A stretch of DNA of 64,000 nt from Hyphomicrobiales bacterium (GTDB lineage Bacteria; Pseudomonadota; Alphaproteobacteria; Rhizobiales; OSC116): contig NVUH01000008.1 of NCBI GenBank assembly GCA_002401855.1, positions 21,126 through 85,125 on the forward strand. The letters run 5' to 3'. Numbering within the stretch: position 1 is the stretch's first letter; each line of letters begins with the position of its first letter. The translations under genes and the position numbers were made by a program. Under the pieces are notes generated by a model. It had not been told where the DNA came from and made no database searches. It saw only the letters and a program-made list of their open reading frames with translations. Below, piece by piece: positions 1 through 53,065 of this stretch.

Positions 1-1
1 A

Positions 2-613
2 GTGGCGGTATCGTGGATTACACCTGCACTGGGGCGGCTAAAAATAAAATATCCTGACTTTGCTTGCGCGGTTGAGATCGTTGACCATCTGGGCATGCAA
101 ACTTTGGTCGGCAGCCGCTCTCATGATGTTGCGGTGGCGTCTTTGCCATTGGGCAGGCCGTCATCGAGATTGACCGAGCACCCGTTATGTGAGTTTGCTT
201 TTGAGGCGATTTTTCATAAAACTCATCCTTTGGCGGCGCAAAAATCGGTTTCTGCGGCTGACATTGCGCAATTTCCGATCATCGGTTTATATCAAGGCCA
301 AATTGGCCGCACGCGGCAAGATGAATTTTTTCGCTCGCAGAATATTAACATCGTTCCGCAAATTGAAACCTCGTCCTCTATCGTCGCGCTGTCGCTTTGT
401 CAGCAAAATTTCGGCATCGCTTTGATGCCGTCAGTTTATATGATGTCAAATCAATATCCGAATTTAACCAGCCGACCGACCAACCCAATACGCAATATCA
501 GCTTTGGCGCGGTCACCGCAGAAGGGCAAAAATTATCCAGTTTTCAAATGGAATTTTTAACCGAGTTAAAAACCATCGCCGATGATTGGCAAACCATGTC
601 TGCCGCACATTAG
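2..613 (+). CDS. LysR-family transcriptional regulator, C-terminal effector-binding part only (5' end lies outside the window)
   Basis: The ORF is open to the window edge. The translation looks like the periplasmic-binding-protein-like effector domain of LysR-type regulators. No wHTH is present because the N-terminus is missing. Confidence 0.7.
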   Translation: MAVSWITPALGRLKIKYPDFACAVEIVDHLGMQTLVGSRSHDVAVASLPLGRPSSRLTEHPLCEFAFEAIFHKTHPLAAQKSVSAADIAQFPIIGLYQGQIGRTRQDEFFRSQNINIVPQIETSSSIVALSLCQQNFGIALMPSVYMMSNQYPNLTSRPTNPIRNISFGAVTAEGQKLSSFQMEFLTELKTIADDWQTMSAAH

Positions 614-622
614 CTTTGATGA

Positions 623-1945
623 TTATAACCTAGCCAACCAAATAGAGATTTGCGGGAAAATGGCTAGAATAACCAAACCAACAACCATCGCCAATACAAA
701 TGGCATGGCGCCACGGAATATATCGCCAACCTTTAAATCGGGGTCATTCATCGCCGCCTTGATGGTGTAGACTGACAGGCCAAAGGGCGGGGTCAACAAA
801 CCCATCTCGACCGCTACCACAGTCATCACCCCAAACCAGATTAAGTCGAACCCAGCTTGTTGCGCGACAGGCAATGCAATCGGCAATAATATCAGCATGA
901 TTGAGATGGAATCAATCAAACAACCAAGCAAAATTACAATCACCAAAAATAATAGCAAGAAACCATAGGGGCCTAAAAAATCACCCAGCAATATCTCGCC
1001 CAACATATTTGGCAGGCCAGACATGGCCAACATGCGGCTAAAAAACGTTGCCGCCATGATTAGAAACAACACCGATACGGTGATATGGCCAGATTCGACC
1101 AATAGGTTCCAGAATATTTTAAGCGTCAAAGAACGGCGCAACAAGGCAATCACCAAAGCGCCAGCAGCGCCGACAGCGCCCGCTTCGGTTGGGTTTAAAA
1201 ACCCACCATAAAGCCCGCCCAATACCAAAGTTACCAATGAAAATATCGGCAAGGCTTTGCGAATTATGTCAAGGCCTGAAAGCTCCTCAAACTCAACATC
1301 CTTAGCTGCGTCATCACCTGCTTCAAATACAAAGTCTTTTCGCCACATCGCCATACCAATAATCGCGAGCGAAAATAAGCCTGCCAATAATAAACCAGGC
1401 CCAACACCCGCTAAAAACATCCGTCCGACAGATTCTTCGGCTAGCACGGCATAAACAATCATCAATAAAGATGGTGGAATGAGCATGCCCAATACCGAGC
1501 TGCCCGCCACCACGCCGGTGGCAAAACGTTTGGTATAACCGTGCCGCGTCATTTCGGGCACTGCCACTTTTGAAAACACTGTGGCCGAGGCAATCGATAC
1601 ACCGGTGATAGATGCAAATACCGCATTGGCAAACACCGTCGCTACGCCTAGGCCGCCAACCAATTTACGCATCAGCCGTTCGAACACGTCAAACGTATCC
1701 TTCCCGACCCCCGAAACGGTCACCAACAGCCCCATCAAAACAAATAATGGCACGACCGCAAATAAATATTCACGCAAGCTATCATTGGCAACTGAGCCAA
1801 TCATGCTCATCGCCACCCGCTCGTTGCGGATCATCATCACACCGCCGAACGAAACCAATAACATGCCCACGCCAATCGGCATGCCCAATGATATGGCCAA
1901 AATTAAAATACCAATTGCCAAAATGCCAATTTCTATGCCTGTCAT
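623..1945 (-). CDS. dctM: TRAP transporter large permease subunit (DctM family)
   Basis: A 440-aa polytopic hydrophobic ORF of typical DctM length and composition. Its start abuts the stop of the DctQ-like ORF. Confidence 0.9.
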   Translation of the reverse strand: MTGIEIGILAIGILILAISLGMPIGVGMLLVSFGGVMMIRNERVAMSMIGSVANDSLREYLFAVVPLFVLMGLLVTVSGVGKDTFDVFERLMRKLVGGLGVATVFANAVFASITGVSIASATVFSKVAVPEMTRHGYTKRFATGVVAGSSVLGMLIPPSLLMIVYAVLAEESVGRMFLAGVGPGLLLAGLFSLAIIGMAMWRKDFVFEAGDDAAKDVEFEELSGLDIIRKALPIFSLVTLVLGGLYGGFLNPTEAGAVGAAGALVIALLRRSLTLKIFWNLLVESGHITVSVLFLIMAATFFSRMLAMSGLPNMLGEILLGDFLGPYGFLLLFLVIVILLGCLIDSISIMLILLPIALPVAQQAGFDLIWFGVMTVVAVEMGLLTPPFGLSVYTIKAAMNDPDLKVGDIFRGAMPFVLAMVVGLVILAIFPQISIWLARL

Positions 1946-2524
1946 TTATTCTTCTTCCTTCAGCGCAAAAATGGCTTTTATGCCTGTAATCACATGGATA
2001 AAAAATTGTATCGCCGCAACTGTAATGCCAATTAAAATCATCAATCTAAATGGCCATGTCGGTATGGTTAGCACGCCTGTCACGCCAATATAATTGTCAA
2101 ATTTCAAATCTTTTAAGAGAATTTTATAGGTAGAATTGGCAATAAATCCGCATAATACCGCGCCCACTAAATCCCACATGGCTTTAACAAACATACCAGC
2201 GCGTGGGAATTTTGCGGTGAATGGTGGCAAAAATAATTCGGTACGGGCTAAACGTTCATGCCTTACGGTCGTGCCTAACTGCAAAAACACAATCATCACC
2301 AATGTCAACGCGCCCAGCTCTGACACCAGCGGCAGCGAGCTGCCAAACAGGTTTCTCATCACCACATCAGAGCAGATAATGATCATCAACACGCCAATTA
2401 ATATGGTGCCAATGGCACCTAGGCCATCTGCAATGATAGACCAATAACGTGATAACCAATGGCTTTGCCGCTCCCATTTAGGAGCGACAAAATTATTGTT
2501 TTTCTCATTCACTATATTTTCCAA
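1946..2524 (-). CDS. dctQ: TRAP transporter small permease subunit (DctQ family)
   Basis: 192 aa with about 4 hydrophobic segments, sandwiched between the DctP-like and DctM-like ORFs. Confidence 0.8.
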   Translation of the reverse strand: MENIVNEKNNNFVAPKWERQSHWLSRYWSIIADGLGAIGTILIGVLMIIICSDVVMRNLFGSSLPLVSELGALTLVMIVFLQLGTTVRHERLARTELFLPPFTAKFPRAGMFVKAMWDLVGAVLCGFIANSTYKILLKDLKFDNYIGVTGVLTIPTWPFRLMILIGITVAAIQFFIHVITGIKAIFALKEEE

Positions 2525-2565
2525 ACCTAGATAGAGTATAGTATTACATTGAGTTTATTCAGAAC

Positions 2566-3645
2566 TTAATTCAAGTCCCAATTGCGCAATGGTGTTTCAC
2601 CTTTTTCGCGCAAACCATCCATATAAGCTTTCAAGAAAGCTTTGGCTGGAATGCCGCGGGCTTCGGTCGCTGCTACCCATTCACCAGCAAGATCTGGCAA
2701 TCTATCAATCCATTGTTGGCGCATTTCTTCGGACATAACAGAAATGGTCACGGGGACATCTTGGTCTTTGCCAAGTTCAACCATTTTATCCATAAAGATT
2801 TCATGGCGGGTGATCATATCTTTGGCATGCTCATCAGAATAATACTGACCAGCGGCAAGCATGGCGTCTTGGATTTCTGTATCTAAACTATCCCATGTGT
2901 CTTTATTGATGGCCAAACCACCAGAGAATACCGTACCAAAGTTAACCCGTGTGATGTAAGGTGCCACTTCATAAATTTTAGTTGGCAATACACCTAGCGC
3001 CAATGACAATGCACCATCAGACACACCTGTTTGAATGTCGGTATAGAAAGTTGGTAACGCACCATCAACCGCTGTCGCGCCCACGCCGCGCAACCATGTG
3101 CCTAGCACACCAGGGGCGGATAATTTAACGCCAATTAGGTCGCTCAAATCATTGATTGGTTTTTTGGTATAAAGATCATAACTATCTGAGCCAGTTGCGC
3201 CCAAATAAACCAAATTATACTGTTCCCATTCCTTTTTAAAGGCGGGGAAGGTTTCGTATAATTCGCCCAATGTGCCCAATTGTGCAGGTACATTTGTGGT
3301 GGTAAACGGCGTAAAACCTGTTACTTGGCTCAATGGCATTTTGGCAGCTTCTAAATATGAGAATACCCAACCAATGTCTGTCACACCTTCTTCAACCGAA
3401 GTGAGTGTGGCGTTGGCTTTGTATAATTGACCACCAAAAGCTTCTTGCCAATTGATTTTATAATTGCCCGTTTTGGCCAAAATTTCATCAACTTTTGGCA
3501 TAAAGTGAGATTGGATAAAACCAATCCACGGAATGACGGTTGGATGGCTTGACGCAACAGTGATGTCCACTGTTTCTTCGGCCATGGCGGCAGGTGCAAA
3601 ACTGACCGCTGCACTTAATAGCAATGCGCTTAGTATTTTCTTCAT
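2566..3645 (-). CDS. dctP: TRAP transporter substrate-binding protein (DctP family)
   Basis: 359 aa with the signal peptide MKKILSALLLSAAVSFAPAAMA, in the usual position upstream of the QM pair. Confidence 0.85.
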   Translation of the reverse strand: MKKILSALLLSAAVSFAPAAMAEETVDITVASSHPTVIPWIGFIQSHFMPKVDEILAKTGNYKINWQEAFGGQLYKANATLTSVEEGVTDIGWVFSYLEAAKMPLSQVTGFTPFTTTNVPAQLGTLGELYETFPAFKKEWEQYNLVYLGATGSDSYDLYTKKPINDLSDLIGVKLSAPGVLGTWLRGVGATAVDGALPTFYTDIQTGVSDGALSLALGVLPTKIYEVAPYITRVNFGTVFSGGLAINKDTWDSLDTEIQDAMLAAGQYYSDEHAKDMITRHEIFMDKMVELGKDQDVPVTISVMSEEMRQQWIDRLPDLAGEWVAATEARGIPAKAFLKAYMDGLREKGETPLRNWDLN

Positions 3646-3681
3646 TTTTTTTCCCTCTTTGTTGGACTACTTCTTCGTTAT

Positions 3682-4071
3682 TTATTTAATTGTAAATGTC
3701 TGGCTGGATTTATTCAGGGTGATGGTCACACTGCCTTCATTAATCAACCAAGGCCTGACCTTAAATTCGCGCGCCCCACATATATGCATCGGGTCACGTT
3801 TGGCAATCTCGATGGCTGCGGCGCGTGAAGCGGCACGAACCACCACAAGCCCCTCGCCTTCCCAGCTTTCTTCATCATCTGTCCACATCGGGCCAGCTGC
3901 GTAAAGCACGCCTTCGGCTTCAAGCGCTACCTGAAACTCAAGATGTTTTTCTAAATTTTGAAATATAGATTCAAGCCCATTTGTGGCCGTGGTAAAAATA
4001 GCATAAAGCTGTTTTTGCAACATTTCACTACTGGCTTGCATCACGTCTGCGCGTGGTACTGATTTTAACAT
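3682..4071 (-). CDS. YciI-like (YCII domain) protein
   Basis: 129 aa. The C-terminal half (GLVVVRAASRAAAIEIAKRDPMHICGAREFKVRPW) matches the YCII-fold pattern. It lies 19 nt downstream of the CoA-transferase gene. Confidence 0.55.
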   Translation of the reverse strand: MLKSVPRADVMQASSEMLQKQLYAIFTTATNGLESIFQNLEKHLEFQVALEAEGVLYAAGPMWTDDEESWEGEGLVVVRAASRAAAIEIAKRDPMHICGAREFKVRPWLINEGSVTITLNKSSQTFTIK

Positions 4072-4090
4072 TTTTCTCCTCCCAAAAAAT

Positions 4091-5242
4091 TCAATTATTG
4101 CGGCTCAATTCAGCACGTATTTCATCACCATGTTCATCCAAAACGGGCGGTGCCATAACGTCTAAATTTGGTTTTCCATCAAAATTATAAGGTGCGCGAA
4201 CTGTTGTAAAACCACCCTCTAGCGGGTTGATATCCGATACATTCTGCGCTTCAACTTTAATGTTTAAATGCAGAGCTTGCGGGTCTTCTAACGCTTCATC
4301 GGCATCATAAGCGGCTGAATGCGGCACTTCTTTTGCCAGCAATAAAGCACACCATGCATCGCGGGTTTTGGTGGCAAATACTGGCGTTAAAATATCAATT
4401 AAATCCTCTTGGTGCTTAATCCGCTCAAGCCGTTCTTCAAACCGTGGATCAGTTAGCAATTCCAACTTGCCCGTGGCTTCAATAAACCCTTGCCAAAATT
4501 TTGGTGGCGATGACATATGAATAGCCACCGATTTACCATCTGAACATACAAATGTGTATGATTGCGAAACCTTAGGACGGCTTAATGGCCCCATCACTTC
4601 ACCTTCAGATAAATAATGCGTAAAACTATCTAAATTAAAATGACACATGGCTTCAAGCATCGAAATGTCCAAACGCCTGCCTATGCCAGTTTTAGCAACC
4701 TCAAGTAAAGCTGCCATAATGCCCAAAGCGGCATATTGTCCTGTGACTGAATCGGCAATCGCAGGGCCAATCACCCGCGGTCTATCTGGCGGGGTGAGCA
4801 AACGCAAATAACCACTAGCAGCTTGCGCCACCGTGTCAAATGTCGGCCTGTCAGCCGAGGGGCCATCAGTACCAAAACCTGTAATGGCGCAATAAATAAG
4901 CTTGGGGTTAATCTTGCGCAAATCGGCTTCACCAACACCCAACCGCTCGGCCACACCCGGCCTAAAATTCTGAATAAACACATCAGCAGTTTTGATCAGC
5001 GCATGAAATGTCGCCAAATCATCGGCCTGTTTGGTATCGAGCGCAATGGAGCGTTTGTTGCGGTTATAAGTCTGAAAATGCGGTGAATATAAACCACCTT
5101 TAAACGCCCTAAATGGGTCGCCTGTTACAGGCCGCTCAACCTTAATCACATCAGCGCCTAAATCGGCCAAATGCATGCCCGCAGCGGGGCCTGTAATATA
5201 TGTGCCAAGCTCGATAACCCGAATGTCTTTCAATATCTTCAT
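4091..5242 (-). CDS. Family III CoA-transferase (CaiB/BaiF/Frc type)
   Basis: MKILKDIRVIELGTYITGPAAGMHLADLGADVIKVE is the canonical family III N-terminus. I set the start at the ATG at 5242. The longer ORF to 5383 would overlap the upstream gene by 131 nt and adds a non-homologous leader. Confidence 0.85.
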   Translation of the reverse strand: MKILKDIRVIELGTYITGPAAGMHLADLGADVIKVERPVTGDPFRAFKGGLYSPHFQTYNRNKRSIALDTKQADDLATFHALIKTADVFIQNFRPGVAERLGVGEADLRKINPKLIYCAITGFGTDGPSADRPTFDTVAQAASGYLRLLTPPDRPRVIGPAIADSVTGQYAALGIMAALLEVAKTGIGRRLDISMLEAMCHFNLDSFTHYLSEGEVMGPLSRPKVSQSYTFVCSDGKSVAIHMSSPPKFWQGFIEATGKLELLTDPRFEERLERIKHQEDLIDILTPVFATKTRDAWCALLLAKEVPHSAAYDADEALEDPQALHLNIKVEAQNVSDINPLEGGFTTVRAPYNFDGKPNLDVMAPPVLDEHGDEIRAELSRNN

Positions 5243-5252
5243 ATAGTCACTT

Positions 5253-6062
5253 TCACTCAGACTTATCTTGTGGCTTAGGCTGCTCGCCATCATAATCAAT
5301 GGCCAAATCAGCATTATGCGACATAATAAAACCAATAGAACGGGTGGATTCTTCAAACAAATGCGCCACCAAGCCCGCCGCACGCGCCAATAAAGGCACG
5401 CCTTTCATGGCTGCCAATGGCCAACCCGCATCTAACATCACTGCTGGAATGGCGCCCGAAACGTTGATCGGCAATGGCCGATTGATAATTTCTGGCGCAT
5501 GTTTGGCAAGCAAACGCAGCATTTCAATATTCTCGCCCGTCACACCATGTTCATCAGCCAAGGCCAATAAAACATTCGCCCGTGGGTCGCCCGCACTATG
5601 TTGCGGGTGGCCAAGGCCAGGCACTTTTTGGCGGGTGGCTTTTAAGTTTTTAAGGCTGTTAATCGCCGCCTCTTCCCTGCTGATACCGCTATCTTTGGCA
5701 TCTTTTATGGTGGCGACAATATATTGCCCTGCAATTTCAGAGCTGCCTGCCACCACACTGCCCATGCCAAGCAAGCCCGCTGCCATCGCGCCTTGCCATG
5801 CATCTGGGCCTGCCGCTAAGGTCATACGCGCCGCTTGCACACTTGGCACAAGGCCATGTTCGGCAATCGCCACCATGCAAGCATTGGTCATCATTTTTTG
5901 TTTTTCATCAGGGTTTTTACCTGTCACCAATAGCCAAAAATAATCAGTAAAATCAGTTTTGCCGATCAATTCGCTACACAGATCAAACCCACGCACAGTC
6001 ACACCTTCAGCGTCCGAAGTTGCGATGGCGGTGAATGATTGATCTTGTTTACCTATTCTCAT
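5253..6062 (-). CDS. Short citrate-synthase-family protein (citryl-CoA-lyase-like)
   Basis: 269 aa. It contains GLGHPQHSAGDPRA, which resembles the citrate synthase GHRVY...DPR signature. It has the ~270-aa short form usually annotated as citryl-CoA lyase. Confidence 0.7.
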   Translation of the reverse strand: MRIGKQDQSFTAIATSDAEGVTVRGFDLCSELIGKTDFTDYFWLLVTGKNPDEKQKMMTNACMVAIAEHGLVPSVQAARMTLAAGPDAWQGAMAAGLLGMGSVVAGSSEIAGQYIVATIKDAKDSGISREEAAINSLKNLKATRQKVPGLGHPQHSAGDPRANVLLALADEHGVTGENIEMLRLLAKHAPEIINRPLPINVSGAIPAVMLDAGWPLAAMKGVPLLARAAGLVAHLFEESTRSIGFIMSHNADLAIDYDGEQPKPQDKSE

Positions 6063-6083
6063 TAGCTTATTCTTTCTGTATCA

Positions 6084-6449
6084 TTAGGTCTGGATAGACG
6101 GATAATCTTTGCCGACCCAATGTTCGAGCTTTGCCGCATATTCAAGCTGAAAGGCCAAGGGGCCTTTTTCTTTCATATAATCTTCTTCATAAATGGCGAT
6201 ATAAATGGTCAGGCATAAAAAGAAATGCGCGCCCATTTCAAACAAAGCCACATAATCATGATCAATCAAAATTTTGCGCTCTTCCGCGGTCAACGAATGA
6301 ACACTGCTCATTTCAGCTTCATTCAACCGTGGGCCAATAGATTGCTCCCACGAGGCCACCATAGCTGCAGGATTTTCCTTATAACGCGCCAATAATTCAG
6401 GGTCGCGATCGATTTGAAATAGGAATTTATTGACATAATATTTGCTCAT
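6084..6449 (-). CDS. LigA-like small subunit of a class III extradiol dioxygenase
   Basis: 121 aa. MSKYYVNKFLFQIDRDPELLARYKENPAAM and LTAEERKILIDHDYVALFEMGAHFF resemble the LigA (protocatechuate 4,5-dioxygenase alpha) family. It overlaps the LigB-like gene by 4 nt. Confidence 0.7.
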   Translation of the reverse strand: MSKYYVNKFLFQIDRDPELLARYKENPAAMVASWEQSIGPRLNEAEMSSVHSLTAEERKILIDHDYVALFEMGAHFFLCLTIYIAIYEEDYMKEKGPLAFQLEYAAKLEHWVGKDYPSIQT

Positions 6450-7324
6450 GACTTGACTCCTCCTGGCTTTTCTCCCTCAGGATACCATGTGAAATAGGCT
6501 TCCATCGTGTGAAACAAATCTAAACTATCGACATAATCCGCTTGCTGATTTGGCCCTGCAATGCCCAACATCAAAATAAACTCCATAAAGCCGCCTGTGG
6601 CATTGCCCGATTTGGCGAGGCTTTCATGGGTTACATTTTCCAAAATGGCGTCAATGTCGCCATTGCGTAACCATTCAATGGCCTGATGGTCAAATTCCGG
6701 GTCTGGCCCTGTTTCTTTAAACATACGCGGCCCACCAAGTTCGAGCGATAAATGCCCCGAACCAATGGCGGCAATGCGTTTATCAGATGGATATTCATCA
6801 ATAATTTCGCGGATCGCACGACCAAGCTGGTAAAAACGCTTAGGTGATGGCAATGGCGGAGCAAAAATATTGGCATATATCGGCACGACAGGTAAGTCAT
6901 TATCAGGCCGCACGGTGATGATTGGGCAAATAATTGAATGATCAATTTTCAACTCATTGCTAAACGCAAAATCAAACTCACGGTCAAGCAAGCCCTGATG
7001 CATAAAGTTAGAAAGATCTTCATCGCCTTCAAGCACATATTTGGGAATTGAAAATTCGCGCTCCTCATTATAGAAAGTCGCGTCATAACGCGGCGCTTTG
7101 CCAATTAAGAATTGCGGATAATTGTCTAAGAAAAATTGATGAAAATGATCCGCGCCTATCATCACCAGAATGTCTGGTTTGGCTTTGGTTAATGTTTCGC
7201 GATAGGCTTCAATCTTACGCTTCCACTCTGCGGCCTGCGGCATTTGCTGCTCAACGGGCATGGTGGTGGCTTTTAAATAAAATGGGTGATGTGTTGTGGC
7301 TAGTGTTGCAACTAGTTTTGCCAT
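6446..7324 (-). CDS. LigB-like catalytic subunit of a class III extradiol ring-cleavage dioxygenase
   Basis: 292 aa. It aligns by eye to LigB blocks: ATTHHP (N-terminal His), ILVMIGADHFHQFF (cf. VILVYNDHASAF), KIDHSIICP (cf. DVDHGCTVP) and AAIGSGHLSLELGGPR (cf. WGTGGMSHQLQGPR). Confidence 0.8.
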   Translation of the reverse strand: MAKLVATLATTHHPFYLKATTMPVEQQMPQAAEWKRKIEAYRETLTKAKPDILVMIGADHFHQFFLDNYPQFLIGKAPRYDATFYNEEREFSIPKYVLEGDEDLSNFMHQGLLDREFDFAFSNELKIDHSIICPIITVRPDNDLPVVPIYANIFAPPLPSPKRFYQLGRAIREIIDEYPSDKRIAAIGSGHLSLELGGPRMFKETGPDPEFDHQAIEWLRNGDIDAILENVTHESLAKSGNATGGFMEFILMLGIAGPNQQADYVDSLDLFHTMEAYFTWYPEGEKPGGVKS

Positions 7325-7369
7325 TCAAATGCCCTCCCTATGGTCATTTTCGTGTGTTTCTAATTTATT

Positions 7370-7387
7370 ATTTCGCCTAACGAAAAT
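7370..7387. promoter_or_regulatory. Candidate IclR operator, copy 1 (ATTTCGCCTAACGAAAAT)
   Basis: Imperfect inverted repeat ATTTCG-N5-CGAAAAT, 46-63 nt upstream of the ligB-like start. It is 17/18 identical (21/22 with flank TATT) to the reverse complement of 8427-8444. Confidence 0.6.
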
Positions 7388-7494
7388 TATTTCGTATTAA
7401 TGATAGGCGATTTATGCTATAAGTGTCAAGGCTATATTATTGACGGTTAATAAGGCCTATGCTAAACAGCAGTTAACGGCAATTAGGAGGCATT

Positions 7495-8298
7495 TTGCAA
7501 AATTTGGAACAAGACAAAGAACTGTTAGATGCTCTGGCACGCGGCCTGATGGTTATTGAATCTTTTGACCAAGAGCAGCCCGAAATGACCTTAAGCGAAG
7601 TGGCGCGCAAAACTGACATCAAGCCTGCTACCGCACGGCGCATATTGCGCACCTTGGTGGCCTTGGGTTATGCCCGCATTGTCAATAAACGTTATTTACT
7701 GACCCCCAAAATATTGGGGCTTGGTGCTGCCTATTCACGCTCCGCGCAGCTAGAAGAAGCGTTTATGCCTGAGCTAAAACGTTTGGTCGGCAAATATGGT
7801 GATGCCTCATCGGTGACTATATTGGCTGATAATGAAATTTTTTATGTGGCGCATTTTAGCGAGCAAAAAGGCAGCCGTGTTTCTGCCGATGCGGGCATCA
7901 CTTACCCCGCCTACCCTGCCTCGATGGGGCGGGTATTATTGGCTGGTTTAAACGATCAAGAACTTGACCAATATTTTGCGCAGGTCGAATTTGAAAAGCG
8001 CACCGAGAATACCGAAACCAACCCCAGCATATTGCGTAAAATCATTCAAACAACCCGAGAAGTTGGTTTTTCTTCCACCAGAGACGAGCTGTTTTATGGC
8101 GTAACGGCATTGGCTGTGCCCATCGTGGTCAACCGCGGCACGGTGATCGCGGCGATCAACTCCTCTGGCTATTCAGGCAAAGTGACAATGGATGAATTGA
8201 TCGATCAGCGGTTGGATGATTTACGCATTTCAGCCGATAGAATCGCCGATACATTGTTACGCTACCCTTCATTGCGCCATTCTATCGAACGTTCATAA
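7495..8298 (+). CDS. IclR-family transcriptional regulator
   Basis: 267 aa with a wHTH (LSEVARKTDIKPATARRILRTLVALGY) followed by an IclR effector domain. The TTG start lies 4 nt after AGGAGG. The gene is divergent from the ligB-like operon. Confidence 0.9.
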   Translation: MQNLEQDKELLDALARGLMVIESFDQEQPEMTLSEVARKTDIKPATARRILRTLVALGYARIVNKRYLLTPKILGLGAAYSRSAQLEEAFMPELKRLVGKYGDASSVTILADNEIFYVAHFSEQKGSRVSADAGITYPAYPASMGRVLLAGLNDQELDQYFAQVEFEKRTENTETNPSILRKIIQTTREVGFSSTRDELFYGVTALAVPIVVNRGTVIAAINSSGYSGKVTMDELIDQRLDDLRISADRIADTLLRYPSLRHSIERS

Positions 8299-8426
8299 CT
8301 CACAAAACATCAATGGTTTCCGTGCTATATGCCAAGAATATTCAACGCAAGAAGCGCTATATTCGGCAGATAAATTAACCCTTATTTGACAAAACCCAAC
8401 TTCCTACATAGTCTATATTAGAAATA

Positions 8427-8444
8427 ATTTTCGTTAAGCGAAAT
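8427..8444. promoter_or_regulatory. Candidate IclR operator, copy 2 (ATTTTCGTTAAGCGAAAT)
   Basis: Reverse complement ATTTCGCTTAACGAAAAT differs at one base from copy 1. It lies 36-53 nt upstream of the amidohydrolase ATG, downstream of a possible TTGACA (8386-8391). Confidence 0.6.
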
Positions 8445-8479
8445 ATTTCCAATCAAACTTACCGAGGGAGGAAGGTAGA

Positions 8480-10006
8480 ATGTGTAAATTATGTGATGAG
8501 GGAAAACCACAATTAATCTGTGGATCACGCAGAGATTTCATAAAAACAGCGGCCATAGCAGGCACTGCCACAGCGGCATCGACGGTTTTGGGCGTGACCA
8601 GTGTCAACGCCGCTGAAACCGCAGCTACGATGAGCAGCATGCCCAAAGATGTTGGCAAAACAGGCCGTAAAACCATCATCAAAGGCGGCGCCATCTTATC
8701 GATGGATGACAAAGTTGGTAATTTTGAAAAAGCCGATGTGTTGCTTGATGGCAAAAAAATTATCGCCATTGGCCCCAATCTTGAAGCTGCCGATGCCGCG
8801 ATCATTGATGCCGAAGGCATGATCGTCATGCCCGGGTTTATCGATACCCATCACCATCAATTCGAAACCGCATTACGCAGTTTTTTAGCCGATGGTATTT
8901 TGGTCAATGATGGCCAACCGCACAGCGCCTATAATTATTACGAAACTATTTTGCAAAAATTCTCAATGGTTTACCGCCCATCTGATGTTTATATCAATGA
9001 ATTATTCGGCTCCATCGCGCAATTAGATGCGGGTGTCACCACGGTGATGGATGTCTCGCAAATTCACCATTCACCCGAACATTCCGATGCGGTGATTTCG
9101 GCCTTAAAAGATGCGGGTCGGCGCGCCGTGTTTGGTTATTTTGAAGGCTGGGGCGATGATGCCAAATATCCAGATGATGCTGCCCGCATCAAAACCGAAC
9201 ATTTTGCCTCTGACGACCAGCTGTTAAGCATGGTTATGGGTGGTGAAATTTATTTGCCGGGCTATGAAAAAGCCTGGAAAGTCGGCCGCGATTTAGGCAT
9301 GCCCATTGCTTTACATGTTGTCGGCACATTTGGCATGGCAGGCACTTTTGATGAGCTAGCTAAAGCTGGCGAATTTGGCGATGACAATATTTTCATTCAC
9401 ATGACAGGCATGTCCGACATGGCTTGGAAAATCGCCGCCGATGCAGGCGCGCATGTTTCCCTATCTGTGCCGATTGAAATGACCATGCGCCACGGCATGC
9501 CGCCCATTCAAAAAGCTTTGGATTTGGGCATGCAGCCTTCTCTTTCCAGCGATGTTGAATGCACCATGACGGCAGACCCGTTCACCCAAATGCGCTCAGC
9601 GATGACTTTACAACGTGCATTCATCAACGAACGGGCGTTATCGGGCGAGGAAGATTTACCAGAATTGGTCACATCAAATGATGTCATCCGTTTCGCCACA
9701 TTGGAAGGCGCAAAAGGCCTGAAATTAGATGGCAAAACAGGCAGTCTAACGCCCGGTAAAGAGGCCGACATTGTGCTGCTTGATGCCAATGCCATTAATG
9801 TCACCCCGCTCAACCATGTACCGGGTGCTGTGGCAACATTGATGGATCGCTCAAATGTTGATAGTGTTTTAGTGGCAGGTAAAATCCGCAAATGGCGCGG
9901 CACAATGGTTAATGTAGATCTGGATAAATTGCGGACGGAATTAACCGCCAGCCGCGATTACCTATTTGAAGCCGCTGGCATCAAACAAGATCTATTTCGC
10001 AAATAG
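8480..10006 (+). CDS. Tat-exported amidohydrolase-superfamily enzyme (TRZ/ATZ / aminohydrolase-like)
   Basis: Twin-arginine motif SRRDFIKTAAIAGTATAAS followed by VNA-AE. Metal-binding HxH context (GFIDTHHHQFE). Strong RBS GAGGGAGGAAGG. 508 aa. Confidence 0.8.
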   Translation: MCKLCDEGKPQLICGSRRDFIKTAAIAGTATAASTVLGVTSVNAAETAATMSSMPKDVGKTGRKTIIKGGAILSMDDKVGNFEKADVLLDGKKIIAIGPNLEAADAAIIDAEGMIVMPGFIDTHHHQFETALRSFLADGILVNDGQPHSAYNYYETILQKFSMVYRPSDVYINELFGSIAQLDAGVTTVMDVSQIHHSPEHSDAVISALKDAGRRAVFGYFEGWGDDAKYPDDAARIKTEHFASDDQLLSMVMGGEIYLPGYEKAWKVGRDLGMPIALHVVGTFGMAGTFDELAKAGEFGDDNIFIHMTGMSDMAWKIAADAGAHVSLSVPIEMTMRHGMPPIQKALDLGMQPSLSSDVECTMTADPFTQMRSAMTLQRAFINERALSGEEDLPELVTSNDVIRFATLEGAKGLKLDGKTGSLTPGKEADIVLLDANAINVTPLNHVPGAVATLMDRSNVDSVLVAGKIRKWRGTMVNVDLDKLRTELTASRDYLFEAAGIKQDLFRK

Positions 10007-10019
10007 CAACACTCCCCAT

Positions 10020-10045
10020 GAAAAGACGCATTTATGCGTCTTTTC
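10020..10045. terminator. Bidirectional rho-independent terminator hairpin
   Basis: GAAAAGACGCA-TTTA-TGCGTCTTTTC is a perfect 11-bp stem with A/T runs on both sides. It lies between the convergent amidohydrolase and thuB-like genes. Confidence 0.8.
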
Positions 10046-10082
10046 TACTTATACTCGACAAGTCTACTTATATTCTGCAAGC

Positions 10083-11141
10083 CTATTTATGATCTCCAAG
10101 CGCTTGATCGAGAATTTTTTGCAAGGCAGCACCACGGGCAAATGTTGGCTCTAATGATTTTTGTTCACGAATTGATTTTACAAATTTTTGATAGATTGTG
10201 TCCACCTCAGGTGTTTCCACCTCATGCCATGTCTCAGTTTCTAAATCCTCAGCAAGGCAGGCGTTTAGGCGGCTGATTTTCTTTTCAAACAACACTTCCA
10301 AACCGCCCTTATCGCCATAAATGCGCAGGCGTAAATCATTATGATGGCCAGATGCAAAACGCGTGGCACTAATCGTGCCCAAAGCGTTGTTTTCAAGCTG
10401 CATATGCATGACAAAACTATCATTGGCATCAAGCGGATATTCACCAATCTGATTGTTTGGTGCTTTATCAAAAGTATGTAATTTACAATCCATATTTTGC
10501 GGCATTTGCCCCGCAATATAGGTGGCAAAATCAATGATATGAATGCCAACATCGCCCAACACACCTTTTGAGCCATGCTCGCTAGATAATCGCCACAACC
10601 ATTGACTTTCAGTTTTCCAATCGCCCCAAGCAGGCTGGGTCAACCATGATTGCAAATAAGATGCTTCAAAATGTTTCACCTCACCAATCGCGCCTTCAGC
10701 CACCATTTGCGCGGCTTTTTGCACTGCCGCGACATCGCGATAACTTAAATTGACCATATTCACGACGCCCATTTTCTGGGCTAAATCGGCCATTTCTTGC
10801 GCCTCTGGATATGATGTGGCCAATGGTTTTTCACATAAAACATGCTTATTCGCCGCTAAAATTTGCATGGTCGTGGCGTAATGAACTTTGTCAGGTGTCA
10901 CGTTTGAAACCGCATCAAATTCACCCCATGCTAGCAAATCATCTAACGAGGTGAATCTATGTTCAATGTCATACTCATCACAAAATTTTTGCAACAAAGC
11001 TTCATCCATATCCAAACCCGCAACAACGGTCACATCTGGGTTATCATTATAGGCCGCAGCATGGTTGTTGGCCATGCCACCCGTACCAACAATTGCAATT
11101 CGCGTTGGGGCGATACGGGTTGGTATTGATTTATCTGTCAT
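10083..11141 (-). CDS. thuB: Gfo/Idh/MocA-family oxidoreductase (ThuB-like)
   Basis: Rossmann N-terminus RIAIVGTGGMANNHAAAY. It follows a ThuA-family gene, as in the Sinorhizobium thuEFGKAB locus. Confidence 0.7.
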   Translation of the reverse strand: MTDKSIPTRIAPTRIAIVGTGGMANNHAAAYNDNPDVTVVAGLDMDEALLQKFCDEYDIEHRFTSLDDLLAWGEFDAVSNVTPDKVHYATTMQILAANKHVLCEKPLATSYPEAQEMADLAQKMGVVNMVNLSYRDVAAVQKAAQMVAEGAIGEVKHFEASYLQSWLTQPAWGDWKTESQWLWRLSSEHGSKGVLGDVGIHIIDFATYIAGQMPQNMDCKLHTFDKAPNNQIGEYPLDANDSFVMHMQLENNALGTISATRFASGHHNDLRLRIYGDKGGLEVLFEKKISRLNACLAEDLETETWHEVETPEVDTIYQKFVKSIREQKSLEPTFARGAALQKILDQALGDHK

Positions 11142-11163
11142 ATATCTCTCTTAATTTTGGCGG

Positions 11164-11949
11164 TTATTTAAAACCATCTTCGCCATCTTGGTGCAATCTT
11201 GGCCCACGCTCAACGATTTTCTCAATGGCGTCTTCAACAGGTCTATTGGGCGCATCCGTCACATCTTGCACCCGCGCTTGGGGATTATAAGCCCAATTCA
11301 CCGCATTGGTCAACACAGTTTGCACGTTTTTATCATGATAAGTTGGGTAAGTTTCATGCCCCGGGCGGAAGTAGAAAATATTGCCAGCACCGCGCTTATA
11401 AGTCACGCCAGAGCGGAACACTTCACCGCCTTGAAACCAGCTGATAAATACATTTTCAAGCGGTTCTGGTATGCCAAATGGCTCACCATACATTTCTTCA
11501 TTTTCAAGTTCAAAATAATCAGGCAGGCCTTTGGCAATCGGGTGATTGCGTGATGTCACCCACAGGCGCTCCCGCTCACCAGCTTCGCGCCATGACAAGT
11601 TACACGGCGTGCCCATTAAACGCTTAAAGGGTTTTGAAAAATGCGCGCTGTGCAAAAATATCAAGCCCATGCCGCTCCATACAGCCTCGCAAACCCGCTC
11701 GACCACTTCGTCAGACACATCGCCATGGGCGGCGTGTCCCCACCATAATAATACATCAGTTTCAGCCAAACGCTCGGCGGTTAAGCCATGCTCGGCCTGT
11801 TGCAAAGTCGCAGTTGTGGCGTCTATGTTGGCAGATTTATTTAACGTCTCGGCGATGCAGCCATGCATGCCATTAGGATATAAATCAGATACAGTTTTAT
11901 TGGTTTGTTCGTGAACATTTTCACCCCAAACAACAGTTTTTATTGTCAT
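11164..11949 (-). CDS. thuA: ThuA-family protein (trehalose utilisation)
   Basis: MTIKTVVWGENVHE... is a typical ThuA start. I chose the internal ATG at 11949. The ATG at 11967 abuts the thuK stop and has no RBS. Confidence 0.8.
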   Translation of the reverse strand: MTIKTVVWGENVHEQTNKTVSDLYPNGMHGCIAETLNKSANIDATTATLQQAEHGLTAERLAETDVLLWWGHAAHGDVSDEVVERVCEAVWSGMGLIFLHSAHFSKPFKRLMGTPCNLSWREAGERERLWVTSRNHPIAKGLPDYFELENEEMYGEPFGIPEPLENVFISWFQGGEVFRSGVTYKRGAGNIFYFRPGHETYPTYHDKNVQTVLTNAVNWAYNPQARVQDVTDAPNRPVEDAIEKIVERGPRLHQDGEDGFK

Positions 11950-11967
11950 TATTTTTTCCGCTTTCAT

Positions 11968-12981
11968 TTAAAGAGCTGGCTTGCCCTGTTGATTAAATTT
12001 ATGCAAATTGGCGTTTTGGGGGCGAAGATTGACTTCCGTGCCATTTGCAATTTTTAGTTTTCCTGCTTGACGCACCACTAACGGCTCATCCGCGCCAATC
12101 TCTACATATAAATAATTGTCCGAGCCTAAGTCTTCAGCATGAATCACCTTGCCAGTCCAGAGCTTATCCGAATTATCCTCAACTACAATTTCAATATGTT
12201 CAGGGCGAATACCCAAAGTGTGGCAGTTAAACTCATCAGCAAACTTACCCGTTAAGAAATTCATCTTTGGTGAGCCAATAAACCCGGCCACAAATATTGA
12301 GGCTGGGCTTTCATAAAGCTCACTTGGTGTGCCGACTTGCTCAACAATGCCAGCACGCAAAACGCAAATTCTATCGGCCAAGGTCATGGCTTCAACTTGG
12401 TCATGGGTCACATAAACCATAGTTGTGTCTTGCATATCATGGTGCAATTTAGCAATCTCTAGCCGTGTCGCCACCCGCAATGCGGCATCTAAGTTGGATA
12501 AAGGCTCATCAAACAAAAACACTTTTGGGTCACGCACAATGGCGCGGCCAATGGCCACCCGTTGGCGTTGCCCGCCCGATAATTGTTTGGGCAGGCGCTC
12601 GAGCAAATCTTCGATTTGTAGCATTCGTGCCGCGTTTAGCACGCGTTCCTTCATCTCTTGTTTGGTGGTCTTGGCCAGCTTCAAGCCAAACGCCATATTG
12701 TCATAAACCGTCATATGCGGGTAGAGCGCGTAAGATTGAAACACCATAGCAATGCCGCGTTTAGAGGGGATGACGTTATTGACAACCTCACCATCAAACA
12801 ATAATTCACCGTCACTGATGGTTTCCAAACCCGATATGAGCCGCAATAAGGTCGATTTTCCGCAACCCGATGGGCCGACAAAAACCATAAATTCACCCGA
12901 TTTTATCTCTAAGTCTATGCCCTTAATCACATGCACGGCGCCGTATGATTTATGCAAGTTTTTCAATTGAATGTTAGCCAT
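11968..12981 (-). CDS. thuK: Sugar ABC transporter ATP-binding protein (MalK/UgpC type)
   Basis: Walker A GPSGCGKST, signature LSGGQRQRV and Walker B FLFDEP. Position matches thuK. Confidence 0.85.
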   Translation of the reverse strand: MANIQLKNLHKSYGAVHVIKGIDLEIKSGEFMVFVGPSGCGKSTLLRLISGLETISDGELLFDGEVVNNVIPSKRGIAMVFQSYALYPHMTVYDNMAFGLKLAKTTKQEMKERVLNAARMLQIEDLLERLPKQLSGGQRQRVAIGRAIVRDPKVFLFDEPLSNLDAALRVATRLEIAKLHHDMQDTTMVYVTHDQVEAMTLADRICVLRAGIVEQVGTPSELYESPASIFVAGFIGSPKMNFLTGKFADEFNCHTLGIRPEHIEIVVEDNSDKLWTGKVIHAEDLGSDNYLYVEIGADEPLVVRQAGKLKIANGTEVNLRPQNANLHKFNQQGKPAL

Positions 12982-12993
12982 TATTTACTCCAA

Positions 12994-13827
12994 TTATCCT
13001 TTAACCCCACCAGCGGTGAGGCCAGAAACGATTTTACGTTGAAAAATAAGCACGAGTGCAATGAGCGGTACGGTTACGATTACCGATGCTGCCATAATTG
13101 TGCCCCAAGGGGTTTCATATTGTGATGTGCCAGAAAGTAGCGCAATCGCCACGGGCACAGTTCTGGTGATTTCTGACGATGTAAAAGTCAGCGCAAAAAG
13201 AAACTCATTCCACGCACCAATGAATGCCAGTAAGCCTGTTGTCACCAAAGCGGGCCACATTAAAGGCATAAACACTTTGGTAATGATGTCCCACGGCGTC
13301 GCGCCATCAATGATCGCCGCTTCTTCAATTTCGACTGGCAAGCCCCGCATAAAAGTGGTCAAAACCCATACGGTGAATGGCAAGGTGAAAATCGTATAGC
13401 TTAAAATCAACGCCCAAGGCGTGTTGTAAATGCCCAAATAACGGATCAATTCAAACAAACCCGCCAGCACCGCAATTTGCGGAAACATCGACACGCCCAA
13501 AATGGTCATTAACAACAAGCCACGACCTTTGAATTTTACCCGCGCCAAGGCATAGGATGCGGTGACCGCCAAAAACAAAGCAAATATAACCGTGGTAGAG
13601 GCAACGAATACCGAGTTGGCAATGTTACGCAAAAACGTTCTGCCGCCCAGCACCGAAGCGTAATTTGAAAAGTCAAAACTATCGGGAAAATAATTAACTC
13701 TAAACAGGTCTGTGCCGGTTTTAAGGCTGGTTAGAATCGCGTAATAAAACGGGAATATAGCGATAAACACAACGACAAACACCGCAAAATAAAAACTGAT
13801 TTTCTTGACATAATCCATTGAGGTCAT
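12994..13827 (-). CDS. thuG: CUT1 sugar ABC transporter permease
   Basis: 277-aa polytopic ORF with an EAA-like loop (EIEEAAIIDGATPW). Confidence 0.85.
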   Translation of the reverse strand: MTSMDYVKKISFYFAVFVVVFIAIFPFYYAILTSLKTGTDLFRVNYFPDSFDFSNYASVLGGRTFLRNIANSVFVASTTVIFALFLAVTASYALARVKFKGRGLLLMTILGVSMFPQIAVLAGLFELIRYLGIYNTPWALILSYTIFTLPFTVWVLTTFMRGLPVEIEEAAIIDGATPWDIITKVFMPLMWPALVTTGLLAFIGAWNEFLFALTFTSSEITRTVPVAIALLSGTSQYETPWGTIMAASVIVTVPLIALVLIFQRKIVSGLTAGGVKG

Positions 13828-14810
13828 TGTTCGTCCTTTCCACCTAAGTCAACTTTTCCAAGCCAAATATAAGCCGCCACAAAAATGGCAATGATGGCAA
13901 ATAGCAAGGTCGATTGAGCCGAACCATAAGCGAATTTATCGAATTCAAACAGGTTTTCGCGGCTGATGATTGACATGGTTTTGGTGGCTTTTGAGTTGGG
14001 GGTGAGAACGTAAATCAAATCAAAAATCCGCAACGCATCTAATATTCTAAAAATCACCGCCACCATAAGTGCGGGCCGCACCAGTGGCAAAGTGACTTTA
14101 AAAAACACTTTTATAGGGTGTACACCGTCAACTTTTGCGGCTTCGTACACATCTTTCGGTATCATCTGCAAGCCTGCCAAACATAGCAAAGCCATAAATG
14201 GCGTGGTTTTCCAAACGTCGACAACCAATACCGACATCATGGCGGTGTCGATACTCGCCGTCCACGCAATCTTATGGTCAATCAGGCCAATTTTAAGCAA
14301 GGCATCATTAATGATGCCGAACTGATCATTGAGCATCCAGCCCCACATTTTGGCCGAAACAATTGTGGGTATCGCCCACGGGATGAGAATGGCGGCACGC
14401 ACCAAACCGCGGCCTTTAAATTCGACATTGAGCATCAAAGCGACCAACATACCTAAAACCGCTTCAATAGATACGGATACAAAGGAGAATCTGACCGTGT
14501 TCCAAACTGCATTCCACCATGCAGGGTCAGCTAGTGTGCCGCGCCAGATCACACGGCCTGATGATAACTCACGGTAAGATAAATAATTTTTAAACCAAAC
14601 CCACTCGCCTTCATAAAGGCTGGTTAACGAGGTATCGGTGAAGGAAAAATAAATGGTGCGTAACAAAGGCCACGCCGCAACACAAAATAGCATGACGATC
14701 ATGGGGGCCAAAAACCAAAATGCAGCCCGCACTCGTTGCTGCTGCAAACTAAGTGAATTTGACGTTTTATGGCTGCGCTTCGTCCCGTTTTCTAAGCTAA
14801 AATTGGACAT
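13824..14810 (-). CDS. thuF: CUT1 sugar ABC transporter permease
   Basis: 328-aa polytopic ORF with an EAA-like loop (VYEAAKVDGVHP). It overlaps thuG by 4 nt. Confidence 0.85.
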   Translation of the reverse strand: MSNFSLENGTKRSHKTSNSLSLQQQRVRAAFWFLAPMIVMLFCVAAWPLLRTIYFSFTDTSLTSLYEGEWVWFKNYLSYRELSSGRVIWRGTLADPAWWNAVWNTVRFSFVSVSIEAVLGMLVALMLNVEFKGRGLVRAAILIPWAIPTIVSAKMWGWMLNDQFGIINDALLKIGLIDHKIAWTASIDTAMMSVLVVDVWKTTPFMALLCLAGLQMIPKDVYEAAKVDGVHPIKVFFKVTLPLVRPALMVAVIFRILDALRIFDLIYVLTPNSKATKTMSIISRENLFEFDKFAYGSAQSTLLFAIIAIFVAAYIWLGKVDLGGKDEQ

Positions 14811-14835
14811 AAAATTCTCACAAATTTAAGCCCTC

Positions 14836-14861
14836 GTGTAGATTACTTCAGTAATCTACAC
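14836..14861 (-). other. Intercistronic stem-loop between SBP and permease genes
   Basis: GTGTAGATTACT-TC-AGTAATCTACAC has perfect 12-nt arms. Confidence 0.6.
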
Positions 14862-14880
14862 AGGAGGATTTGTTAAAGGT

Positions 14881-14906
14881 GCTGAGCCATATAAATACGG
14901 CTCAGC
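14881..14906 (-). other. Intercistronic stem-loop / partial terminator after the SBP gene
   Basis: GCTGAGCC-N10-GGCTCAGC is an 8-bp GC-rich stem, 21 nt downstream of the thuE-like stop. Confidence 0.55.
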
Positions 14907-14926
14907 TTTAATGATAGATAATTAAA

Positions 14927-16195: not shown

Positions 16196-16261
16196 TTTTC
16201 CCTCATTCAAATTAGAATTCATTTCCCTTATTAAAAACGCTTCAAATTTTAGAAATACAAA

Positions 16262-16279
16262 ATCCAAAACGTTTCGGAT
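16262..16279. promoter_or_regulatory. Candidate LacI-type operator (ATCCAAAACGTTTCGGAT)
   Basis: 16/18 symmetric palindrome centred on CG, 67-84 nt upstream of the thuE-like ATG. It shares the half-site (A/T)TCCAAAA with 17426-17443. Confidence 0.55.
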
Positions 16280-16339
16280 TTTGTAGCATGCAGTCAAAAA
16301 GCTGTCAAGCCGCATCGAAACGTAAAAACTGATTTTATA

Positions 16340-53054: not shown

Positions 53055-53065
53055 AGGCTAAAAAA

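Follow-up and report, generated by a model that had tools for sequence, protein, structure and literature searches.

Which aromatic compound would be opened by a predicted LigAB-type dioxygenase that shares its operon with a coenzyme A (CoA) transferase and a citrate-synthase-family protein, and how would the product of ring cleavage be degraded further? The question is raised by a locus of a Hyphomicrobiales bacterium (NCBI GenBank assembly GCA_002401855.1, contig NVUH01000008.1). We analysed a stretch of 64,000 nucleotides (nt) of this contig, a metagenome scaffold (positions 21,126 to 85,125 of the forward strand), referred to below as the window. Coordinates are positions in the window unless another locus is named, and families were assigned by searches with Pfam and other profile hidden Markov models (HMMs). 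Eight co-directional genes are located on the minus strand (7324-623). They encode, in this order, a LigB-like protein, a LigA-like protein, a citrate-synthase-family (CS-like) protein, a family III CoA-transferase, a YciI protein and the DctP, DctQ and DctM components of a tripartite ATP-independent periplasmic (TRAP) transporter. The initial annotation of this DNA had counted nine genes, which is one too many; its coordinates, strand and families agreed with the profile searches, and its gaps of 41 nt or less were borne out, neighbouring genes overlapping by 4 nt at one extreme and lying 41 nt apart at the other. Each family it had named was recovered (LigB, CoA_transf_3, Citrate_synt, YCII, dctPQM, IclR), with the LigA match just under the Pfam cut-off (25.1 against 25.3 bits), and the divergent IclR gene facing the operon was confirmed at 7495-8298. 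It had also stated that no canonical LigAB lower pathway is present near the operon. In agreement with this, no ligCIJK-type, meta-cleavage, beta-ketoadipate or maleylacetate reductase (Fe-ADH) gene was found among the window open reading frames (ORFs) of at least 230 amino acids (aa). The answer which we favour, and which we put forward tentatively, is that the locus represents a catabolic module under the control of IclR, directed at an oxidation-prone aromatic of the benzenetriol/hydroxyquinone type, in which the CoA-transferase and the CS-like protein would replace the usual lower route.

The conservation of the gene set was determined first of all with the LigB-like protein as an anchor. 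A scan of species-representative genomes (one per species) gave at least 568 LigB-like relatives among 599 pattern matches, and the counts given here refer to the best 80 loci of these relatives, which come from Alphaproteobacteria and Actinobacteria. The close relatives of the LigB-like protein in these two phyla are 65-87% identical. The LigA-like gene is placed directly downstream of the LigB-like gene in 79 of the 80 loci. Both the CS-like and the CoA-transferase genes are present in 67/80, and the CoA-transferase is paired with a CS-like gene in each of these (67/67). Because the combination recurs in 67 of 80 loci from two phyla, it is more than chance. The pairing of a LigAB-type enzyme with a CoA-transferase and a short citrate-synthase-family protein, to which the initial annotation had drawn attention, is thus strongly conserved. 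The five-enzyme set as a whole recurs in part: LigBA, the CS-like protein and the CoA-transferase occur together in those 67 loci, and YciI joins them in the TRAP subgroup only. This subgroup, defined by TRAP and YciI genes (20/80), is composed of marine Alphaproteobacteria and includes the window. An amidohydrolase gene accompanies the module in 57-59 of the 80 loci; it occurs together with the CS-like and CoA-transferase genes in 57, and this core with the amidohydrolase and an IclR gene in 56. An IclR gene, in any kind of combination, was found in 65/80. A quinone reductase of the Flavodoxin_2/FMN_red type is encoded in 17 to 30 of the loci, depending on the method. Some actinobacterial versions of the module contain PnpA/HbpA-like phenol hydroxylases, and in an operon on a Rhodococcus plasmid the module is extended by genes for a flavin hydroxylase and an alpha/beta hydrolase. 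A LeuD-like gene placed after LigA in Rhodococcus and Arthrobacter was considered as a hydratase subunit and rejected, as it scores as a genuine LeuD and occurs in 3/80 loci only; we do not count it with the module. The neighbourhoods of relatives of 33-36% identity on plasmids of Agrobacterium K84 and Polymorphobacter gave no useful information; of the other proteins whose context was inspected, P0146 is located on a contig of 1 kb and one window protein on a short contig only. In full-text searches of the literature, we found no paper describing the module, and the papers retrieved were unrelated to it.

A second set of loci bears on the class of the substrate. With the CS-like protein as the anchor, a scan of metagenomes gave 80 loci, which brought the total to 160. 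In nearly all of the CS-anchored loci the CS-like, CoA-transferase and IclR genes occur together. LigBA was found in none of them (0/80), and 16/80 carry an intradiol dioxygenase. The best matches of this dioxygenase in the Protein Data Bank (PDB) are hydroxyquinol/chlorohydroxyquinol 1,2-dioxygenases, with E values of 1e-55 to 1e-65, as compared with 1e-37 for catechol 1,2-dioxygenases. The intradiol hydroxyquinol 1,2-dioxygenase (HQDO) is absent from the window and from all 80 LigB-anchored loci, and in the 160 loci examined LigBA and HQDO were never observed in one locus. In all five TRAP-type loci of the metagenome set under comparison (L098, L100 and L106-L108), the intradiol dioxygenase is placed beside IclR instead of LigBA. 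In comparison with the window, the identity is 70-74% for their CS-like proteins and 72-80% for their CoA-transferases, and four of the five have an amidohydrolase which is 65-75% identical to the window's. YCII is encoded in some of the TRAP-type metagenome loci, including L098, a confirmed HQDO locus. A larger soil group has the gene order WrbA quinone reductase, alpha/beta hydrolase, IclR, CS-like protein and CoA-transferase, followed by a MetE-like protein, a TonB receptor, a small VOC protein and the same intradiol dioxygenase; these soil versions have no amidohydrolase.

The two kinds of loci do not separate by their shared proteins. The CS-like proteins and CoA-transferases from LigBA loci are intermingled with those from HQDO loci, at 70-83% identity; the CoA-transferase of the LigBA locus L004, for instance, is 83% identical to that of the HQDO locus L100 and 79% identical to that of another LigBA locus, L036. 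The Neorhizobium LigBA loci are closer to the soil HQDO loci than to the marine LigBA loci. This interleaving indicates that the ring-opening enzyme was swapped at least two times on one backbone, which is the usual signature of two enzymes with the same job. The interchangeability of LigBA with HQDO points to a substrate of the benzenetriol/hydroxyquinone class and not to protocatechuate or gallate with the citrate-like fission product that the initial annotation had put forward as a hypothesis. WrbA or Flavodoxin_2 quinone reductases are found in the clusters as well. In the classical hydroxyquinol pathway, exemplified by tftEFGH of Burkholderia cepacia AC1100, chqAB and pnpEF, HQDO acts together with maleylacetate reductase, and the two genes normally adjoin each other. 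No Fe-ADH maleylacetate reductase was found among the tested neighbours of the sister loci. A preprint from 2026 reports that a hydroxyquinol dioxygenase is encoded in many genomes of marine SAR116 bacteria in which both maleylacetate reductase and a complete beta-ketoadipate pathway are missing, and suggests a detoxification role for this enzyme.

Two further features of the HQDO versions were recorded. Single-domain MetE-like proteins (Meth_synt_2/URO-D) recur in them and in the LigBA version of Aminobacter MSH1 (examples are L174 4916-6073 and 9934-11076, L107 3593-4615, and L085 4959-5984), and in some marine loci such a gene occupies the position that LigBA has in others. These proteins may be demethylases of methoxylated precursors. 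In the marine locus L108 (1867-4545), a phenol-hydroxylase-type flavoprotein (FAD_binding_3 and Rng_hyd_C) and a second HQDO-like gene are located upstream of the amidohydrolase.

The LigB-like catalytic subunit (6446-7324, minus strand; 292 aa) matched Pfam LigB (PF02900) with 105 bits (E 4e-30), and the start of the gene for the LigA-like small subunit (6084-6449, minus strand; 121 aa) overlaps its stop by 4 nt. A Foldseek comparison of the LigB-like fold gave TM scores of 0.74-0.78 to DesB and LigB, the gallate dioxygenase DesB being the closest solved structure. The active site was examined with HMMER alignments to DesB, LigB and MhpB and with an alignment of 25 sequences, which agreed with each other. 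Enzymes of this type have a 2-His-1-carboxylate site (His12, His61 and Glu242 in LigB; His12, His59 and Glu239 in DesB). Both histidines are kept in the LigB-like protein as His12 and His60, and so is His129. The glutamate ligand is missing, and its position is taken by Gly245, which is invariant in the LigB-like family; farther relatives keep the glutamate. At the position of the catalytic histidine (LigB His195, DesB His192) there is Leu194. Two other residues, His191 and Glu195, are invariant and belong to the motif GxGHLSLELGGP. The metal-binding His/His/Glu set, on which the initial annotation had made its reading depend, is therefore preserved in its two histidines and lost in its glutamate.

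Three classes were distinguished among 69 full-length representatives of the wider LigB-like family. The canonical class has Gly at position 191, His at 194, a variable residue at 195 and Glu at 245. The intermediate class has Ser or Asn at 191, Leu at 194, and Glu at both 195 and 245. In the clade of the window these positions are occupied by His, Leu, Glu, and Gly or Gln, respectively. Since the gain of His191 goes together with the loss of Glu245 across the 69 representatives, a three-histidine metal site is suggested. The LigB-like protein is predicted to be a ring-cleaving dioxygenase in the role of hydroxyquinol 1,2-dioxygenase. Its annotation as protocatechuate 4,5-dioxygenase is probably wrong, and it should not be classed with the LigAB protocatechuate or the gallate dioxygenases, because a defining catalytic feature was tested and is missing.

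A similar situation was found in the CS-like protein (5253-6062, minus strand; 269 aa). It is recognised as a short citrate-synthase-family "citryl-CoA lyase" by the model NF004868 (301 bits, cut-off 193), and matched PF00285 with 82 bits. The closest PDB entry is 6hxp, the Hydrogenobacter citryl-CoA lyase (E 3.5e-27). The protein was aligned to this enzyme, to citrate synthase and to ATP-citrate lyase, and its residues were equated with theirs by means of the PDB alignments and the textbook numbering of citrate synthase. The catalytic aspartate of the NVD motif (equivalent to Asp375 of the pig enzyme and Asp1026 of ACLY) is Ser in the window (NVS), and Ser or Ala in 67/67 loci, with Ser in the alphaproteobacterial and Ala in the actinobacterial ones. 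The equivalent of His274 is Val in the window and Val, Phe or Ile across the 67 loci. The His320 equivalent is the sole kept member of the triad formed in the pig enzyme by His274, His320 and Asp375. The arginines which bind oxaloacetate (pig Arg329 and Arg401) are retained and invariant (DPR161, LLAR227), and a new motif, GHPxH, is present. The absence of the aspartate and of His274 argues against ordinary acetyl-CoA enolate chemistry, and the protein is predicted to cleave C-C bonds or to transform CoA esters otherwise. The annotation as citryl-CoA lyase is probably wrong; here, too, the defining catalytic feature was tested and is missing, and the protein should not be filed under this name. 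The strong conservation of both the LigB-like and the CS-like protein argues that their active sites are remodelled and not dead.

The gene for the family III CoA-transferase is located at 4091-5242 on the minus strand. Its start is most likely at 5242 (MKILKD), giving 383 aa, because the longest ORF (start 5383) would overlap the CS-like gene. The protein matched Pfam CoA_transf_3 (PF02515) over its full length (339 bits, positions 1-365 of the 366 in the profile). It comes nearest to the families of the succinate-glutarate, oxalate and mesaconate CoA-transferases, without reaching the cut-off of any of them (for example 209 against 750 bits). The equivalog models all remained far under their cut-offs, so that the protein fits no characterised substrate-specific subfamily. 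Its closest relatives act on aliphatic dicarboxylates.

The active-site residues of the LigB-like and CS-like proteins bear on the scheme of the initial annotation, in which a canonical LigAB would cleave protocatechuate, gallate or a similar catechol and a true citryl-CoA lyase would split a citrate-like thioester by a retro-Claisen reaction. The family memberships on which the scheme was built hold by HMM, DesB is the closest solved structure of the LigB-like protein, the arginines binding oxaloacetate and the His320 equivalent are kept, and ligCIJK genes are lacking among the window ORFs of the tested size. We nevertheless regard the scheme as decidedly improbable. The LigB-like protein has neither the glutamate ligand nor the catalytic histidine, the CS-like proteins of all 67 loci are without the aspartate and the His274 equivalent, and the standard retro-Claisen mechanism cannot be assumed for them. 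Moreover, the interchangeable partner is a hydroxyquinol dioxygenase and not a protocatechuate or gallate dioxygenase, and the conserved module includes no hydratase which could form the tertiary alcohol. Of the earlier interpretation, the idea of a new lower-pathway logic stands; the chemistry assumed in it is probably wrong.

Another possibility is that the CoA enzymes act before the ring is opened. In such a pathway, the CoA-transferase would activate an imported aromatic acid, for example of the tertiary-alcohol quinol-acetate or aroyl-acetate type, and the CS-fold enzyme would remove the two-carbon side chain as acetyl-CoA. The quinone or benzenetriol released would be reduced and opened by LigBA or HQDO, and the ring-fission product would be left to enzymes whose genes lie in other parts of the genome. 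LigBA and HQDO would then need no common product, despite the 70-83% identity of their CS-like and CoA-transferase partners. The carboxylate transporters (TRAP, TctC) and the quinone reductases in the clusters would be accounted for as well. The IclR protein of the window is PcaR-like, and PcaR regulators control the beta-ketoadipate pathway. We consider this order of steps unlikely, though not negligible. HQDO genes normally adjoin maleylacetate reductase, and none was detected in the tested neighbours or among the window ORFs of at least 230 aa. The CS-like protein retains the arginines that bind a dicarboxylic oxo-acid, and the closest relatives of the CoA-transferase use aliphatic dicarboxylates. 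Many marine HQDO carriers have no complete beta-ketoadipate route according to the 2026 preprint.

Downstream of the IclR gene, an amidohydrolase of 508 aa is encoded (8480-10006, plus strand). It belongs to the conserved module and was overlooked by the initial annotation, in which the amidohydrolase, quinone reductase and YciI (TftG-like) context was not considered. The protein matched NF006056 (421 bits, cut-off 391) and Pfam Amidohydro_1/3, and represents the PRK08204 subfamily of the TRZ/ATZ / guanine-deaminase-like (cog0402-type) group. Among proteins of known structure, it is most closely related to 8-oxoguanine deaminase, atrazine chlorohydrolase and triazine hydrolases, and the metal-binding HxH motif is present (DTHHH, residues 122-126). 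The N-terminus carries a twin-arginine signal made up of SRRDFIK, a hydrophobic stretch and the sequence VNA|AE. The same signal (TRRDFLK) was found in about 12 marine orthologs and is missing from the Neorhizobium and actinobacterial ones. Because this twin-arginine translocation (Tat) signal is present, the amidohydrolase of the window is predicted to be located in the periplasm and to be the first enzyme of the pathway, working before TRAP uptake. The start of the gene (8480-8530; orthologs from L004-L036) also encodes a conserved cysteine motif, M-C-[KR]-[LF]-C-x(6-9)-C-P, which precedes the twin arginines and is retained even in orthologs without the export signal (Neorhizobium).

The presence of this enzyme brings in catabolism of an N-heterocycle as a further explanation. 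The amidohydrolase would deaminate or open a hydroxylated ring of the pyridine or pyrimidine type, LigBA would cleave a dihydroxy-N-heterocycle, and the CoA enzymes would degrade the resulting dicarboxylate in a variant of the maleamate pathway. Membership in the TRZ/ATZ / guanine-deaminase-like group is consistent with this, as are the additional hydroxylase and hydrolase of the Rhodococcus plasmid operon. A LigB-like/LigA-like pair of 40% identity (P0137; L090 6111-7336, L091 4762-5987), which belongs to the same clade with His191 and without Glu245, adds to it by its neighbours: RidA, creatininase, a DHOase-type amidohydrolase, a CMD-like protein, a luciferase-like monooxygenase and a dienelactone hydrolase. 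We judge the explanation to be improbable. The characterised HQDOs act on carbocyclic triols, and they replace LigBA on the same backbone; the amidohydrolase of the window is exported and would have no access to a cytoplasmic ring-fission amide; and the soil HQDO versions have no amidohydrolase at all.

In the explanation that we favour, a compound of the benzenetriol/hydroxyquinone type would be formed and degraded in five steps. In the periplasm, the Tat-exported amidohydrolase would displace an amino or other leaving group, which is the most likely case, or hydrolyse an amide, giving an anionic product. This product would be imported by the TRAP transporter, which is complete, as DctP (2566-3645, with a Sec signal), DctQ (1946-2524) and DctM (623-1945), all on the minus strand, were each matched by Pfam; TIGR00786 also matched with 321 bits (cut-off 268), and DctP gave only weak matches to solved structures. 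In the cytoplasm, the YciI protein (3682-4071, minus strand; 129 aa; Pfam YCII, 45 bits) would prepare the triol in a TftG-like manner, with quinone reductases helping to set the redox state. TftG is the YCII-family dehydrochlorinase of the Burkholderia hydroxyquinol pathway and converts substituted hydroxyquinol to hydroxybenzoquinone; to our knowledge, it is the only characterised YCII enzyme. A comparison of YciI with solved structures gave no match, hence no clue to a ligand. No quinone reductase is encoded in the window, though many sister loci have one in the cluster. The ring would then be opened by a heteromer of the LigB-like and LigA-like proteins, with a predicted metal site of His12, His60 and His191 and with Glu195 as the acid-base residue, thus doing the same job as HQDO. 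The CoA-transferase would activate the resulting dicarboxylate, of the maleylacetate type, and the CS-fold enzyme would convert or cleave the CoA ester to an acyl-CoA product that recycles CoA. Together, these two enzymes would take the place of maleylacetate reductase and of the steps of the beta-ketoadipate pathway. We infer the substrate class, the three-histidine site, the order of the steps and the reaction of the CS-like protein from these comparisons. A narrower statement, namely that a LigB-fold enzyme with three histidines and without the steering histidine carries out the ring opening of HQDO, and that the CoA-transferase with an Asp-less CS-fold protein forms a new CoA-dependent route for products of the maleylacetate type which replaces maleylacetate reductase and the beta-ketoadipate pathway, seems doubtful to us in that specific form.

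Expression of the module may be governed from the region between the divergent genes (7325-7494). The IclR regulator (7495-8298, plus strand) matched Pfam HTH_IclR and IclR_C and is of the PcaR/PcaU/PobR type, with 235 bits against TIGR02431 (cut-off 285). In a promoter scan, the best promoter-like site of the region was found before the LigB-like gene on the minus strand (7429-7400, TTGACA-18-TATCAT) and agreed with the consensus at 11 of 12 positions. An inverted-repeat search at default stringency gave no result in the control region; a short repeat, TTTCG-N5-CGAAA, was read directly from the sequence at 7371-7385. It is followed by a third TTTCG (7371-7394), and the whole is a possible candidate for the IclR operator. 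Rfam searches gave no match, whether the whole window was scanned with gathering thresholds or positions 1-10300 with E values up to 1, therefore there is no riboswitch hint to the ligand.

Several points weigh against the favoured explanation. Extradiol-fold and intradiol enzymes normally give different products, and the equivalence of the products is an assumption. Simple cleavage of maleylacetyl-CoA would give maleate, for which the module has no conserved isomerase or hydratase. The CS-like protein is without the residues that enolise acetyl-CoA, so that Claisen-type cleavage needs another base. Hydroxyquinol has no carboxylate, which the binding proteins of TRAP transporters usually require. 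Members of the amidohydrolase family are known above all for the deamination of N-heterocycles, and the context of the 40%-identical pair P0137 looks like a separate one of the N-heterocycle type. In 13 of the 80 LigB-anchored loci, LigBA occurs without the CS-like protein or the CoA-transferase; two of these are truncated contigs, and no conserved partner genes were identified for the 13. The AlphaFold model of the LigB-like protein has a mean pLDDT of 68 and low confidence at residues 60-76 and 192-205, the very loops of the putative metal site, so that the proximity of His191 to the metal is a prediction. Finally, the pathway was assembled from gene content and sequence comparison.

The remaining part of the window contains genes for sugar uptake and oxidation, regulators, an isocitrate-lyase-family protein and a formate-dehydrogenase-like set. 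An unrelated sugar-use cluster (10083-17374) encodes LacI, a sugar ABC transporter, ThuA and a GFO_IDH_MocA oxidoreductase, and is not conserved with the module. The oxidoreductase gene (10083-11141) was considered as a candidate for LigC and rejected on account of this neighbourhood and of its lack of conservation with the module. At 51280-54664, a ScfR-type regulator (HTH, Peptidase_M78 and ScfRs domains) is divergent from the isocitrate-lyase-family protein of 532 aa. The formate-dehydrogenase-like set (58449-63762) is NAD-linked and consists of a Nuo51-type FMN subunit, a molybdopterin subunit of 991 aa with Fe-S domains, and FdhD. A protein of 398 aa (43104-44300) had no Pfam match in our scan, and its precomputed record gives only PF27187 (APC_Aq_097); its gene adjoins one of the VIT1 iron-transporter family.

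The degradation of polyphenols, lignin fragments, nitrophenols and chlorophenols is funnelled centrally through hydroxyquinol and related triols. According to textbooks, the opened ring is then processed by maleylacetate reductase and the beta-ketoadipate pathway. The module, which is present in hundreds of species of at least two phyla, is a candidate for the lower steps missing in the SAR116 carriers of hydroxyquinol dioxygenase. If the proposal is true, it would explain why many marine and soil bacteria have hydroxyquinol-type dioxygenases without a recognisable lower pathway. It also poses two enzymological puzzles, a LigB fold without the 2-His-1-carboxylate site and a citrate-synthase fold without the catalytic aspartate.

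The locus was compared with four known systems. With LigAB (protocatechuate 4,5-dioxygenase) and the gallate dioxygenases DesB and GalA, which are class III extradiol enzymes of PF02900, it shares the fold, a translationally coupled two-gene beta/alpha arrangement (the LigA match being just under the cut-off) and the three histidines at positions 12, 60 and 129. It differs from LigAB and DesB in the invariant Gly in place of the Glu ligand, the Leu in place of His195, and the invariant His191 and Glu195. Furthermore, no ligCIJK or galBCD lower pathway accompanies the window genes, and their genomic partners are those of hydroxyquinol dioxygenase. The citryl-CoA lyase (Ccl) of Hydrogenobacter thermophilus and the ATP-citrate lyase module have the same short citrate-synthase-family fold (6hxp), and the CS-like protein keeps from them the His320 equivalent and two oxaloacetate-binding arginines. 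However, it has Ser or Ala for the catalytic aspartate and the GHPxH motif in addition, its partner is a CoA-transferase and not a citryl-CoA synthetase, and the context is catabolic and aromatic.

The logic of the CoA steps resembles the degradation of itaconate (Ict/Ich/Ccl), malate (SmtAB/Mcl) and citramalate. In these pathways, a family III transferase activates a dicarboxylate without ATP cost, C-C cleavage comes next, and an acyl-CoA able to recycle CoA is released. The lyases are of the HpcH/CitE or HMGL type, whereas the candidate enzyme of the window has the citrate-synthase fold, and these pathways have no link to aromatic ring cleavage. The hydroxyquinol pathway is related to the locus through the sister loci, which hold a bona fide HQDO on the backbone of the window. 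Quinone reductases (in the sister clusters), YCII proteins of the TftG family and, in some versions, upstream phenol hydroxylases are common to both. In contrast to this pathway, the window has LigBA where the intradiol enzyme stands, and a CoA-transferase with a CS-fold protein is present where maleylacetate reductase was not found in the tested neighbours. The module is best read as a hydroxyquinol-like pathway in which both the fold of the ring-opening enzyme and the lower half are different.

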